Source: Perna viridis (lineage: Eukaryota). Taken from it: DNA of 64,000 nucleotides. Below are positions 27,510 through 33,500 of the stretch, piece after piece (the stretch's first letter is position 1; each line of letters opens with the position of its first letter). Location of the stretch: contig CM074511.1 of NCBI GenBank assembly GCA_037379345.1, positions 9,052,001 through 9,116,000 on the forward strand, read 5' to 3'. The notes below the pieces were generated by a model. The model worked only from the letters and a program-made list of their open reading frames with translations, was not told where the DNA came from and did no database searches. A program made the position numbers and the translations under genes.

Positions 27510-30500
27510 CTAAAAAAAAATCATAGAAATTTATAAATCACAATGGAACTCAAATACATTTTTTTTGTAATTTTGACACCAGAAACAACTCATTCAAATT
27601 CTTCTAGAATAATTAATACTACAACTTACAAATTCTTTACATTTAAAATCTTCACTTTTATCAGAAATAGCACAAAATATTTAATAAAACAAAAAATTGA
27701 AATAATTGACAGTACTCAAACTTTTAAATGAGTCTAAACAAGAAACATAAAACAGTCTGTGCATTTAAATAAACTTAAGTGAAAAAAAAATAAATAACAC
27801 CAAAATATTGTCTGTATGGGTCATTTAATAGTAGATAAATGACAACTTGTACAAGTACATGTATTGAATTAAGAGTCCACTTTCTCAGTTTATAATGAAT
27901 ATCAAAGTAATATCCATTCATCACAGTCATTTCCTCTGAGATTAACAAACAAGTCTCATCTGAAAGTTCTTGTATTTTTTATAAGAATTTTGTTTCGTTG
28001 TCATGGTGTAAATTTTGAAGTCTATTTTGAGACAGCACTAATTGGCTTGTATCATGGATGGCATACAAAGTCCTCTCCATTTTCAGGACAGCCATTTCCT
28101 CTTTTCTGTAAAATCAAAAACATGTCCATTACCCCCAAAATTACACCCTTTTTAAACCTGCCTGATTTTCAATAAAATGAATTACAGGGCACAGCTTGAT
28201 ATGACAATATATTTCAAACCCTGAACCACAGGTGTTAACCATAGAAAATTCTAAAGCGTGAAATCTCCCTCTCAAACTTTTCTAAAATAGGGTAATTGCT
28301 GAGTTTTTGTTTTTTTTAACATGTTTTGATGGGAACTGAAGTAATTAGTTACAAATTTAAGCTAAAAATTCAAATCAGACAAGAGAAACGTCTGTGAATG
28401 CAGCAAAATTACCAGATGTAAAAAAGGGCAGGTAATTGGGGGAATGCTAAAATTTTCATGAAATATCAGGATGCTAAAAGCTTAGACACCTAAGTCATGA
28501 ACAGTTGTGACAAGTACTGATACAACATTTAAACTCACTCTTAGTTGGATTGTGAATAAATATTATGCCAAAAATAAAAGAACGGTGGTAAAAAAGACTT
28601 CAACATTCACAGTAAAACATTAGAAATAAGCAATACAAGGTTGGAGAATGTCCTTATTTCTTACTCATTTTTGCCTTAAATTCCTAAATGGTAAGGGCCA
28701 AAACTCTTTAAACTCAGCAAAACCTTCCTCTTATGGTCTGAAACCTAATAGTGTACTATTCTATAAAGTTCCATAGGGTTTTACTACAGTAACTGGGGAG
28801 AAACCAGAAGAAAAAGTTTGATTTTTGGCTCCTTATTTCTTCACAGTCGTAGTAATAACCTAAAAATTCAATCATAGCCTGATTGTTGGCGTGTAATATT
28901 GTAGAGATCCATACATGTAACATTGTAGAGATCCATACATGTAATATTGTAGAGATCCATACACATATATTGTAGAGATCCATACACATATATTCCTATG
29001 TTTGCTTTTATTTTGTGTGCACTTTTAACTCCTTAATTCCTATAAACTGTTGGGGCAATAACCCAAAGAATGAATACCAATATTTCTTTCATGGTGTAGA
29101 ACCTTGTTGTAAAATTTTATCAAGATGAACAAATTAATATTCATGTTATAACACCATGATTATGTGTCTGAGGACAGAGCTATACCATTATTTGACTTCA
29201 AATTTAAATTTTTTTTCAGCTGTATAAAAATGAGAATAACACTGTCAAGTGTAATTGTCATCATTTTTTTTCAAATGTCTTAAAACGGTATCTATCAAAT
29301 TCAGCCCTGAAAATAAACTTGGTAAAATCAACATAGATATGGCATAACATAAAAGTAAATGTGTGCATACCATGCCAACAAAACCTTAGTGCAATATGAA
29401 GCCAATTAGTGTTTATCCGCCAAATTGGCAAACAACACTGAATGTCATTCCATGGAGGTATTGACCACATAGGTCAACATCTTCTTAAAAATATTCATTG
29501 TATCAAGACAACATTTTACTTTATTTAGTTTGTCAAAGAAAGTAGCCAAAATGTCCACACCAAAAAACCATTTACAAACCTCCAAAATAAAATAAAATTA
29601 AAAATTGCATAAAATGAGACTTTGAAATGTCATTTTGACACATGAATGTTGTAACAGCTAATAAACCTTTTTTTGTCGTTTAAGTAATCTTCTTTACACA
29701 AAATATGGTAATAAGGCTATCCATTCCATAGATACGAGTATAAACAAATATATCCCTTTCACCTTTCATAGACTTTTTTTACAAGAAAACATCAGGTTTT
29801 TTTTATATTGATAAATTGTACAACATGTAAGACCTTAACAATTACTTTTTCAATAATCCTCAGGAATAAAAAAAAAACAGTTTTCAAGTTATTTCTTTCA
29901 CAGGAATACCAGTATTGTAGGATACAAAATAATAAAATTTTGTGCAAAAGAGCAGTAGGTGGCTATGATGATTTTATTATGTCAAAATCTGAACTCTTGG
30001 GTTATGTCCAGGCAATCACATTTAGTAAGAAAATTGCCCTAGTGCAGACAGTGCATAGAATTGCATTCTCAAGTTAGATATTACACATAAGTAACATAAG
30101 TTTCATATGCACTGACAATTCATTATTCAAGATAAAGATTGATTTTACTGTGTAAACTTAACTTCTTAGGTCATGCAAGTTCATATTTGACAACAAATAC
30201 TGTCACATTTGTATATACATGTTACTGTATGGCAGTAGACTAGTACACACAAGGGTTTACTAAATAGTAGATTATCAAGTTTACATGTACATGAACTTAA
30301 AAACAGACATAGATACAGAAAAAAAGTACAATCCCCAAGCTGACAATGATCACTATAATATACTTACATCTGGCTTGTCTCTATGAGTATTTACAGCTTC
30401 AATGTTGAGACTGATGTATTCAACTCTACAACCATAAGCTACTGGTGTCAGTTTGATCACTGTGTGCAGGGGAACCCGTAGATATGGCAGATCCTCTGAA

Positions 30501-33500
30501 AGTAACAGAGTTAAGTCTCATTAAAATTATACTGAAAAAAAAAATGAATTCTTCGCAGTTTATATAAGTTTTAAATTCTGTTATTGGCTTGCAAAACTTG
30601 TTAAAAAAGTAATCTGCATCAAATATCACTGACGATTTTTAAAAACATTCTGATAAATCTACTCACAACGTATTGTTTTCACTTGTAATTTGTTAATTTT
30701 ATAAGACATATCTTAATTCTAATCAAAAGAAACTGAAGGTTAATTCAGATAAAGCTGTCCACATGCTGAATGATGCAATAGTTATGCATGTATCAGATGA
30801 GCTACATTATAACCATATCGTATTGTTATAAGTCTACTATGGTACCATTTAGACTGACTTAAGTCAGTGTATAAATACTATAAATGATATATATGGATAA
30901 ATAATTTATACTGATCCAAACTACAACAAGAAATAATGGATATGCTGAAGCAATTGTAAACCAATTCATTTTTTTCACTAAAAAAATTCTTAATGTAATC
31001 CTTAACCCTACAAACTTTCACAATTAAAGAATGACATACAAATCTAAAATACTTTTTGCAAAGTTTGTCAATTTTAACTTTCAGTTTTGCAAAATTTCTA
31101 TTTCTTTTTAAGTTCATATACTCAAAAGCTCAAAATATTTAAAATTCACAAGATTAATTGGTTTACTATCCTCATCAAAAAGTAAACATGGAAAACCAAG
31201 TAAATAAAATGAAGCAATAAAACACAGAATAAACATAAAAATGAGTTAAACACACAATTAGCTATAAGATGTACTTGTATAAAGATGTAAAAAATAATGA
31301 AGTTAATTTACCACAGAAAAGAAAAAGATTATAACAACTTAACATTTTTATCTTATAAAACCAGCATCATTTAGATGTTTACTTGGTCTAATATCATTTG
31401 TTTCACACAAATCCCATTTTTATTAAGATGTACTACATGGGATTCACTCATCAGACAGCGGTACAAATTAGCTGTGGCCAAGGACCTTGACCATCAATAT
31501 CTGACCTTGGCATTTTGAACTTTAACTTTCCCAGGTCAAAGACCTTCTGCTATGTTCATCAACACTTTATTGAGGACTTCTGAATTAACTCAAGTAGACC
31601 ATTGATTTGAGATTTGAAAATGTCTACGACATTCCATTTTTTACAGAAACGTTTGACCTCTGCCTGGTTGTAATTTGGCCAACTATAAAACATCCAAGAT
31701 TATCTCCATTATTGTTTCCTATAGGTTTATGTGGCAATAGACACAAATAAAGGTACATATCTCACAAGTAGAATCATGTGAGATCACTATACACATCTCA
31801 CCCGTCACTCTCTCAATGTGAGGATCACTATACACCTCTCACTCACTGCAATGAATTTTCAATTTCTACCTCAAAACCTTATCCCCTTTTTGAATTTCTA
31901 AAAGCTTTAAATAATATAATATCAAAACAAAATGATTAACATATACCATATAAGCCAAACATGGAATGCATTTTTCATGCTGAGGGAAAAGATAAAAATA
32001 TCAAAAAAAGGATGCCAGTATACAGTACACCAATGTAAAGTTAGCCAAACAGTGGGGGCATACAGGAAAGTTAATATATCACACACATTATTTCTAGCAC
32101 TGGTGGCAAGAATTCAGTTAATATTCAACAGTAAGCAAAGCACTTAGAAACATATTTTAGTAACTATCCCTACATAAAACTTACATGTTTTACTAAATAC
32201 AGTACCAAACAATAATAAAAACTGACTTTTCAGTAAAGCATTAAATCTTAAAGCCAAACAAACATTGAACAAGAAAGAAATCAGCCCTTTGAGTTTTATA
32301 AAAGTTAAAATTAAAGGTGAAGTTCAAGGCTGACTTCAATCAAACTTTTCCTGTATGCAATCCTTTAAACGTGCAGACAACTACATGTATAAGCATCTAT
32401 TTTTAGAACTATTGGGTCATGTGATACCTGGTCATCAGTGGTATGTGTAGACACTGGCAGCCATGTCCTGTCAAGTTCATTTTTATCACTGTATGAGAGG
32501 GTACTCTGACATGAGGAATTTCATCTAGAATATTACCGAAAAAACAACAGCCTACTATAAGTAGGATAACTGACAATTGGATGTAAATGTATATTTAAAT
32601 GTTATGTTATAAAACCTATCAACAGCATGTTACATATTTATACTCTGAATGTAATCTCAAAACTTTTTTATGTAACAGCGTAGACAAGTAATATTATATT
32701 ATATAGAATATACCAATTCATCGTGCAAAAGCAGACAATGACATTGTTATACTCAACAAAAATAAAACTGAGTGTAAGTGTAAAGACAACAGATAAAATA
32801 TTGCAGGAGTCAGTAACTTTTGGATATTTGGACAACACTGCTTCATTCTGACACATCAATAACCAAGATAAAAAGATAAGGAACAATTAAAATAAAAACA
32901 TTAGATTTTATCCTATAATTAAATTATTCATGAAAATGCAAGTAAACATCACACAAAGAAAAAATTACACTCTCAAATTAAATGAGGTAAATATAACCCT
33001 AAAAAGGAGGCATTTACTGGAAGATGAAAAACATGCACTACTGAAGACTTTAACCAGCCATTACATGTATACACAAGGGTGACACCAAGTGTTTCCAATT
33101 AAAACAAGAATGTAAAAAAAAATTGAAAAACATCAAAAGCTGAACATGGCTGCTCGAAGGTCACACATACTACTGTCTCAACTATCAGAGGAGATTAGAT
33201 ACTAAATGTCTGTTAAATTATATGTATCCTAAATAAAGCTATTTATTCATTAATTTAAAAACATGTTGCATAAATGACATGATTTACTTTTTAAAAATAA
33301 TATTCACTCCAAAGACCAATTATGAATAGACCCTCCCATAAAAAATTATAGTTCTGTAAAGTTTTAAAAAGTTGAACTCAATTATAAACTTGAATCTTCT
33401 ATCAAGCATTCCTATTAATCCATCTAAAATTCATTTCTGGCAATCTGGCAATAACTGTAATTTTTTTTCTTTGTGCTAGAAATAAAGAGTTGTACCATCA

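Follow-up and report, generated by a model that had tools for sequence, protein, structure and literature searches.

A diverged partial twin exon in the PFKFB gene of Perna viridis, spliced at a low level, and its possible effect on the bisphosphatase core

The single PFKFB gene of the mytilid mussel Perna viridis, on the minus strand of the 64,000-nucleotide stretch of DNA analysed here (the window), carries two copies of one exon, a canonical copy (C) and a diverged one (V). Both splice sites of V are used, at a low level, and the exclusion between V and C holds in the protein only, through frameshift or termination after V; in RNA the two are joined. We propose, with a probability of about 0.45, that V gives rise to a minor, folded form of the enzyme, whose phosphatase would be devoid of its C-terminal lid, turn over faster and escape nucleotide control.

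The duplicated exon and its place in the gene

A kinase exon, used as a query, gave one match in the genome, and thus one PFKFB copy was found. The parts of the gene are listed below.

35951..41718, minus strand: remaining PFKFB coding exons, i.e. the kinase domain and the first part of the bisphosphatase (tblastn, motif checks); the place of the first coding exons is uncertain
35439..35526, minus strand: constitutive exon ahead of V, which encodes the second catalytic His motif (CHQAV) and ends in a phase-1 donor (tblastn; contig joints)
32428..32524, minus strand: variant exon V of 97 nt, which duplicates the initial 32 codons of C; it is entered in phase 1 and left in phase 2 (acceptor used in run X1, donor in run X3; orthologues)
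32409..32427, minus strand: read-through tail of V, 5 residues after the junction Arg, then stop TAG at 32411-32409 (translation; the X1 contig passes the donor)
31300..32408, minus strand: possible 3' UTR of a V-terminal message, a weak hint (contig cover; poly(A)-like hexamers at 31571, 31424, 31383 and 31352)
30368..30495, minus strand: the canonical copy C of 128 nt, which encodes PVAYG and AVNTHR; it is entered in phase 1 and left in phase 0 (tblastn; joint 35439>30495 in 8/8 runs)
30426..30428, minus strand: stop TAG used when V is spliced to C; 58 nt of C lie behind it (shifted-frame translation)
28052..28105, minus strand: coding part of the alternative last exon L2, phase 0, 17 residues (joint 30368>28105 in 4/4 runs; translation)
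27450..27509, minus strand: coding part of the last exon L1, phase 0, 19 residues (tblastn; joint 30368>27509 in 2/4 runs)

V is bordered by ag ahead of its first letters, AT, and by gt behind its last, CAG, and the last 31 nt of C have no counterpart in it. Because the donor of V is in phase 2 and both last exons are in phase 0, V cannot stand in for C in frame. When V is spliced ahead of C, the reading frame of C is shifted. The coordinates, translation, splice sites and phases given for both exons in the preliminary description of this DNA were all reproduced, as was the mismatch between the donor of V and the acceptor of C.

The same holds for the ungapped identity of the two peptides (13/32 residues) and their common phase-1 acceptor, which were recomputed. 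At the DNA level 49 of 97 bases are identical (P=1e-7 against a background of 26%), and the identity is higher at codon positions 1 and 2 (37/64) than at position 3 (11/31; Fisher P=0.034). The C peptide, placed on V without gaps, scored 75, while the best of 200 shuffles of the whole window reached 42 and the next real place 29; comparison of profiles gave a probability of 94% (E 1e-7). V and C are thus adjacent homologous exons of the kind produced by tandem duplication. An origin of V from another PFKFB gene was rejected, since a genome search with V gave V itself and C and nothing else, and a kinase exon matched once.

Orthologues, age and constraint of V

A comparison with relatives, suggested as a check in the preliminary description, revealed orthologues of V in other molluscs. 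In Mytilus trossulus, V followed by the shifted C is present in the RefSeq models X2, X4, X5 and X7, and V is identical to that of Perna at 25 of 32 residues. The Littorina protein KAK7102213.1 has V and then the shifted C at the same position, and the Gigantopelta protein XP_041348571.1 has V there followed by 4 residues. An unnamed ENA open reading frame, P0242, is nearly identical to the Gigantopelta V and ends alike, although it is preceded by sequence foreign to PFKFB; the endings of these two point to read-through of the donor. The gastropod copies share the position and phase of V and are of nearly equal length.

V was found in 6 of the 201 proteins covering the junction, and was absent among the isoforms listed for oysters, Haliotis, Patella, Mya, Dreissena, Pomacea and pulmonates, whose clusters were covered in part (e.g. 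15 of 46). V forms sit within 90% clusters led by canonical proteins and surfaced only through the members of these clusters. For this reason the blanks of homologue searches with the V region of the orthologue P0130 do not show absence: among proteins of 244-777 residues there were 20 candidates, none at E<=1, and among those of 30-243 residues none. A search of 50% representatives with V gave three matches, of which P0242 is real and P0241, a repetitive protein with a 28% match, was rejected. Three loci from a metagenome scan with the V alignment (matches of 11-13 residues, in DNA of 59-64% GC) were rejected as chance.

A branch with support 100/99 separates the four V peptides from the rest of the tree; among the four, mussels pair with mussels and snails with snails. 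The tree has 31 columns, and long branches in it may attract each other. In 9 of these columns each of the four has a residue that none of the canonical segments compared has there, and the bivalve and gastropod copies have 14-18 of 31 residues in common. It is likely, judging from this clade, that the duplication occurred once and predates the split of bivalves and gastropods. The replacement of all three Tyr of C by His, pointed out in the preliminary description, is true in this gene, but the third Tyr is itself not conserved in the family (13/102 distinct sequences). At the position of the PVAYG Tyr the four V peptides have H, H, P and R; a change from Tyr to His as a functional trait of V was rejected, as the snail copies do not have His there.

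Of 23 third positions of C, at least 8 are not the same in the Perna and M. trossulus lineages. In simulations, a neutral exon at 30% divergence kept 25/32 identity in about 1 of 10,000 cases. The 7 changes between the two V peptides, each of which needs only one base, are of a more conservative kind than expected of random single-base substitutions (P=0.003). We infer that the V peptide is under selection at the protein level; the 25/32 identity and the conservative changes bear out what the preliminary description had suggested.

V in assembled transcripts

Contigs of 8 of the 24 runs listed were mapped (X18 looks like X2 filed twice), and the runs were taken as RNA-derived on the ground that their contigs join GT-AG introns. 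Assembled contigs cannot show levels or transcript ends, and rare forms drop out of them. The canonical joint 35439>30495 was present in 8/8 runs. The joint 35439>32524, which the preliminary description had named as a check, was present in a contig of X1 (1/8 runs; depth 3.85 versus 91.2 for the canonical joint), and the joint 32428>30495 in X3 (1/8 runs; 4.54 versus 159.2), both with GT-AG ends. Of the two outcomes that the preliminary description had named as refuting, a lack of reads into 32524 and a lack of conservation in related species, neither was obtained, as X1 has this joint and other molluscs have orthologues. Both joints come from a single study (P1), and their depth does not stand out from that of introns in the two runs (background about 2-8). 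A V joint was found in none of the other 6 of 8 runs, some of them without cover over V; as contigs lose rare forms, this is no proof of absence. None of the contigs of the 8 runs has the upstream exon, V and C in one piece, and the X3 contig retains the intron upstream of V; thus, the contigs bearing V may represent unfinished pre-mRNA.

In X1, a spliced contig passes from 35439 into V and goes on beyond the donor as far as 32015; the read-through stop lies 6 codons behind the donor. Contigs of X7, X4, X2 and X9, from 3 studies, stop at 31304-31332, while the X3 piece crosses this place and that of X1 stops at 31549; contig ends are not transcript ends. Positions 31450-31665 are an old repeat, other copies of which are at most 83% alike, and cross-mapping is an unlikely source of the cover at 31.3-32.2 kb, since mapping needs 95%.

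When V is joined to C, 22 more residues are encoded in the shifted frame before the stop, which lies 58 nt (counted from its last base) ahead of the last junction. In mammals a stop more than 50-55 nt ahead of a downstream junction leads to NMD, according to the available text of PMC5437961, a rule that may not hold in molluscs; this message may be subject to decay. Perna, M. trossulus and Littorina have the stop at one and the same codon, an agreement expected by chance with a probability of about 0.1 in the case of Littorina. No selection on the whole shifted-frame tail was detected: identity to Littorina is 8/22, where 6.9 are expected from the coding of C itself (P about 0.38). The shared ending, SLWL and then the stop, has a chance of 0.001-0.006 in a test picked after the ending had been seen.

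The V form of the enzyme: consequences, alternatives and known systems

The kinase P-loop, RHG, NEIDAG and CHQAV, of which the P-loop, RHG, the NEIDAG Glu and the CHQAV His are presumably the catalytic motifs of PFKFB, lie upstream of V and are intact in the V forms P0130, P0198 and P0220 and in the exons of the window. Pfam domains PF01591 (6PF2K) and PF00300 (His_Phos_1) scored above cut-off in three V-bearing orthologues, the latter with 153 bits with V and 151 with C. V forms lose the element AVNTHR and, in the PVAYG turn, the residues T-P-V-A-Y. Among 102 canonical sequences T, P, A and Y are each invariant and V is present in 101, and the V, T, H and R of AVNTHR are found in all 102; both gastropod V peptides also lack H and T of PLHT. 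In the AlphaFold2 model of the M. trossulus V form, the blocks over residues 391-420 have pLDDT of 88, 85 and 90, with a helix at 389-394 and strands at 401-408 and 411-418, while the tail stays below 50; in the canonical form the block 421-430 with AVNTHR scores 85. Thus, V is predicted to fold like C and to refold the last hairpin, a prediction that leans on canonical sequences, which make up 28 of 30 rows of the alignment. The V-form model matches PFKFB structures in fold, and the rat bisphosphatase domain crystallised as 1FBT stops at the last column of V and overlays the model at rmsd 1.1, so that a domain of this length can fold. The proposal that V remodels the end of the bisphosphatase core is therefore upheld, the last helix and hairpin being swapped and the PVAYG Tyr and AVNTHR lost.

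In the mechanism that we favour, a small share of messages would take V, which would replace the last helix and hairpin of the domain. V is either joined to the shifted C (22 more residues, stop) or read through at its donor (5 more residues, stop); by either route the canonical C peptide is not made, and the protein would end early. Such messages, presumably translated, would provide a minor PFKFB form with the phosphatase lid gone, predicted to turn over faster and to lose nucleotide control. We take the THR segment of mammalian PFKFB to play a part in substrate binding and product release, and the PVAYG Tyr to line an ATP/GTP site in the phosphatase domain; the rat liver enzyme without its C-terminal 30 residues reportedly has a bisphosphatase Vmax raised several-fold. 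From these roles, a lower kinase:phosphatase ratio and lower Fru-2,6-P2 might be expected where V is used. Glycolysis has its chief allosteric activator in Fru-2,6-P2, and molluscs serve as models for the tolerance of anoxia. A bolder and, in our opinion, unlikely extension would be a molluscan splice switch, present since before the bivalve-snail split, in which V rebuilds the end of the phosphatase core, strips the lid by frameshifting its twin exon and adjusts both Fru-2,6-P2 and glycolysis in a given tissue or state, e.g. anoxic metabolic depression.

The swap of five nearly invariant core positions (T-P-V-A-Y) could equally impair the phosphatase. The enzyme would then be real, as the same splicing and conservation suggest, but the changed hairpin and lost lid would weaken the bisphosphatase and make the kinase dominant, with a PFKFB3-like rise of Fru-2,6-P2. 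This outcome, rather doubtful though worth serious attention, would agree with the loss in gastropods of H and T of PLHT as well; and if binding of the substrate requires the lid, as we assume, a form without it would be less active at the substrate levels of the cell. Against it stand the crystallisation of the rat domain cut at the same column, near-identical constructs of which include a phosphoenzyme intermediate, as well as the intact catalytic motifs and the unchanged Pfam score. We consider it still less probable that V is a poison cassette, whose frameshift stop would trigger NMD and turn PFKFB down, the likeness of the peptides being a leftover of origin. Like such cassettes, V is not divisible by three, leads to a premature stop in the next exon, common to Perna, M. 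trossulus and Littorina, and has a low steady-state share, as judged by the contig depth of its joints. That stop is past the 50-55 nt given in the available text of PMC5437961, though at the edge of a limit set in mammals. Unlike poison cassettes, V is a paralogue of the exon that follows it and is conserved as protein; its conservative changes and the 14-18 shared residues fit protein selection, and the read-through forms, in which V would be terminal (the X1 contig, the Gigantopelta model and P0242), have no downstream junction to provoke decay.

That V is a decaying relic, spliced noisily and without function, would account for the scarcity of its joints, found in a single study at the depth of the background, and for its absence from most mollusc isoforms listed. 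This is very unlikely in view of the identity to Mytilus, which neutrality would leave about once in 10,000, and of gastropod copies in the same position and phase and of nearly equal length. Hardly credible is the strict form of the preliminary description, a mutually exclusive pair in which V is spliced to a last exon in place of C, even though the two are homologous, adjacent and alike in acceptor phase. Mutually exclusive exons have equal length modulo 3 and equal donor phase, so that the frame downstream is preserved with either of them, and are never joined to each other. V and C differ in length (97 versus 128 nt) and donor phase (2 versus 0), and 32428>30495 joins them in X3, as do the models of M. 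trossulus and Littorina; no joint from V to 28105 or 27509, both of phase 0, was found in the 4 runs covering these last exons.

V comes closest to the tandem duplicated exon substitutions (UHP events). For human genes the available text of PMC9741552 gives 236 such events (118 internal mutually exclusive, 77 C-terminal and 40 N-terminal). As in the events described there, V and C are adjacent, homologous and ancient and swap a homologous peptide, and the read-through form resembles the C-terminal class. Unlike them, V copies only 97 of the 128 nt of an internal exon and is joined to that exon by splicing, and the two exclude each other through a shift of frame or an early stop. One supplement of a catalogue of human duplicated exons (PMC8373072) did not contain PFKFB. 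Among the papers listed in the literature searched, with subscription papers and bioRxiv supplements outside it, we found no prior description of a duplicate PFKFB exon.

In the vertebrate genes PFKFB1-4, too, splicing alters the C-terminus. The main variants, in the portions available of PMC4178209, PMC6131595 and PMC13446353, change the tails behind the core, from exon 15 onwards, whereas V swaps the last helix and hairpin of the core for a homologous copy and removes AVNTHR. The preliminary description had placed the vertebrate differences only downstream, which is right for the main variants; for rat PFKFB4, however, transcripts with deletions or inserts inside FBPase-2 are reported, for which the available text of PMC4178209 describes no duplicated exon. 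The rat liver bisphosphatase constructs 1FBT, 1TIP and 1C7Z end at the same column as V, but they are engineered domains with the canonical PVAYG hairpin and without the kinase, while V belongs to a natural, full-length protein with a changed hairpin.

As a natural, ancient isoform with an altered phosphatase core and without a conserved C-terminal element, the V form would offer a direct test of the role of that element, and V is a candidate means of controlling metabolism in a phylum for which only one PFKFB gene was found here. A partial twin spliced out of frame onto its sister may be a route to exon exclusion at the protein level, of a type that catalogues of mutually exclusive exons would miss and that annotation would tend to label as a broken or NMD transcript. 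In the runs analysed here the V isoform is rare, and automated gene models for three species already include it without comment.

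Exon V and its splicing

The preliminary description of V and C as exons of PFKFB, V being a diverged duplicate of the first 32 codons of C, is borne out by the sequence.

41718 to about 27450, minus strand: PFKFB gene, coding exons
32524-32428, minus strand: variant exon V, 97 nt, donor phase 2
30495-30368, minus strand: canonical exon C, 128 nt, donor phase 0

V and C agree at 13 of 32 residues and at 49 of 97 bases, identity being higher at codon positions 1 and 2 (37/64) than at the third (11/31; P = 0.034), and their match score of 75 is far above chance (best of 200 shuffles, 42). 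When the PDB was searched with V, 14 of 15 matches were PFKFB chains, each weak (E 0.15-0.5), and a profile of four V peptides matched the PFKFB profile with 94% probability. V ends 31 nt before the end point of C; both last exons downstream (28105 and 27509) are in phase 0, like the donor of C, whereas that of V is in phase 2. Genome searches with the V peptide returned V itself and C, nothing else, and a kinase exon of PFKFB gave a single match. Mytilus proteins are the closest named relatives of the window PFKFB (82-93% identity over cleanly matched exons).

The intron between V and C contains an old dispersed repeat (31450-31665; 39 other scored matches, 69-83% identity). Tandem, near-identical copies of exon C, two per ORF, occur in the proteins P0001 and P0249-P0251, apparently through an independent, recent duplication in another organism.

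Splicing was assessed in 8 of the 24 listed sequencing runs, all assembled contigs, which give no true level. The runs are not recorded as RNA, yet all eight join GT-AG introns (X18 resembles X2 filed twice); they carry no labels, and nothing in them ties V to anoxia or to a tissue. The canonical joint 35439>30495 was present in all eight. The proposed junction into V, 35439>32524, was found in one, X1, at depth 3.85 versus 91.2 for the canonical joint, in a contig continuing past the V donor to 32015. The joint 32428>30495 likewise came from a single run, X3 (4.54 versus 159.2), whose contig retains intron sequence upstream of V. Both splice sites of V are nonetheless in use, one of them for a join to C, and the earlier claim of strict mutual exclusion is not supported. 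As X1 and X3 both come from study P1, and the depths of their V joints resemble intron background, these contigs may be unfinished messages.

When V is joined to C, the latter is read out of frame, for 22 residues up to a TAG at 30428-30426, 58 nt before the end of C. If the V donor is read through, five further residues precede a stop. Four runs, belonging to three studies, have contigs that end at 31304-31332, and X9, which shows depth in just 9 of 30 bins, covers 31332-32160. This cover just downstream of V is a weak hint of a 3' UTR, since X3 crosses 31304-31332 and X1 ends at 31549.

V in other molluscs

V is real and probably ancient. Orthologues, sought as had been suggested, were present in models of Mytilus trossulus, Littorina saxatilis and Gigantopelta aegis, among the protein cluster members listed (e.g. 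15 of 35 for Mytilus, 15 of 46 for oyster). At least four RefSeq isoforms of M. trossulus, and the Littorina model, continue from V into C in the shifted frame; a Gigantopelta RefSeq isoform has V and then four residues. The latter kind of ending also occurs in an ENA ORF, P0242, which has a V nearly identical to that of Gigantopelta preceded by non-PFKFB sequence, and this suggests genomic read-through. Among 201 fetched proteins covering the junction, 183 continue into C, 6 into V and 12 into something else. Automated annotation of three species includes the V isoform without remark; we found no published account of it in the literature listings or the one supplement searched.

The window V is identical to those of M. 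trossulus, Gigantopelta and Littorina at 24, 18 and 14 of 31 positions, respectively, and agreement of the four V peptides with four C segments from molluscs is 8-13 of 31. In a tree they fall on one side of a branch (100/99), with mussels split from snails, although a tree of 31 columns with long branches is by itself no proof of single origin. At nine columns all four V peptides differ from every canonical segment compared, and snail V is one codon shorter than mussel V. Given the common position, phase, near-equal length and new residues, a single origin before the bivalve-gastropod split is the simplest reading. This split is Cambrian, more than 500 million years old.

As far as testable from sequence, constraint appears to act on the V peptide. 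In simulations of a neutral exon, 25 of 32 residues survived with the frame still open about once in 10,000 at 30% divergence and in 3 of 100 at 20%. Window and Mytilus differ in C at no fewer than 8 of 23 third positions, as deduced from the two frames in which M. edulis and M. trossulus proteins read it. The seven residues at which V departs from its M. trossulus counterpart show more conservative replacements than random single-base substitution would give (P = 0.003).

In the window (30440-30426, minus strand), as in M. trossulus and Littorina, the last codons of C in the shifted frame read SLWL-stop. The probability of this by chance is 0.001-0.006, in a test chosen after the ending was seen, and the second frame, or the place of the stop, may be under constraint. 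The V-holding intron hosts other events in gastropod models (proteins P0023, P0188, P0159, P0204, P0210, P0218); a Pomacea model has about 28 extra residues inserted there in frame, and Haliotis, Babylonia, Biomphalaria and Gigantopelta have forms stopping right after the upstream exon.

Predicted effect of V on the enzyme

The reading we favor, at a probability of about 0.45, is that inclusion of V would give a minor, folded PFKFB with a phosphatase devoid of its C-terminal lid, which would lower the kinase:phosphatase ratio. V leaves intact the P-loop of the kinase and, in the phosphatase, the motifs RHG, NEIDAG and CHQAV, all of them encoded upstream of it, and the Pfam phosphatase-domain score is equal with V or C. 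AlphaFold2 places V of the M. trossulus form on the last helix and a two-strand hairpin (pLDDT 85-90), followed by a disordered shifted-frame tail; in the canonical model the ten residues that follow, AVNTHR among them, are placed with confidence (85). As the underlying alignment was mostly canonical, the prediction indicates compatibility of V with the canonical fold, and proof is not claimed. Exon V alters T-P-V-A-Y of the hairpin, which is almost invariant, and lacks AVNTHR; V, T, H and R of the latter motif are found in all 102 distinct canonical segments. The tyrosine of PVAYG presumably lines a nucleotide site, and the THR segment of PFKFB3 was reportedly assigned, by Cavalier in 2012, a part in substrate binding and product release. 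Removal of the last 30 residues of the rat enzyme reportedly raises bisphosphatase Vmax. The last column of 1FBT, a construct of the rat bisphosphatase, coincides with that of V, and it overlays the V-form model at rmsd 1.1. The isolated bisphosphatase domain remains active (PMC8780674), GTP stimulates FBPase-2 (PMC4178209), and the phosphatase control described in PMC6937325 is by the N-terminal hairpin, not by the C-terminal element.

The main rival, an opposite kinetic effect of the V form, seems to us unlikely. Regulated decay of the V-C message comes next and is less probable still: its stop lies just past the mammalian limit of 50-55 nt (PMC5437961), but no junction lies downstream in the read-through forms, and the V peptide appears constrained. 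That V is a relic fits poorly and is improbable. Poorest of all is the fit of a strict mutually exclusive pair, hardly to be credited: exons of such a pair leave in the same frame and are never joined to each other, and V and C depart from both. In its working V resembles a C-terminal tandem duplicated exon substitution (PMC9741552). The vertebrate PFKFB variants mostly alter tails behind the core (PMC4178209, PMC6131595, PMC13446353).

Other features of the gene and its surroundings

All four runs checked there join C to a second last exon (28105-28052, minus strand), at contig depth similar to or greater than that of the Mytilus-like last exon at 27509, through which the UTR of the second one extends. 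The choice between these two is the major C-terminal splice choice of PFKFB. Isoforms of oyster, Mya, Dreissena and Patella have one or other of two versions of the kinase exon at 41204-41106 (minus strand), apparently a genuine mutually exclusive pair; no second copy was found in the window, and the Mytilus isoforms listed have one version. Exons with Ig and fibronectin-III domains at 7130-20065 (plus strand) belong to a cell-adhesion gene converging on PFKFB. At 58265-62915 (plus strand) lies an LTR-retrotransposon-like element with several ORFs, in the order reverse transcriptase, RNase H, integrase, which we take to be that of the Ty3/gypsy and BEL groups.
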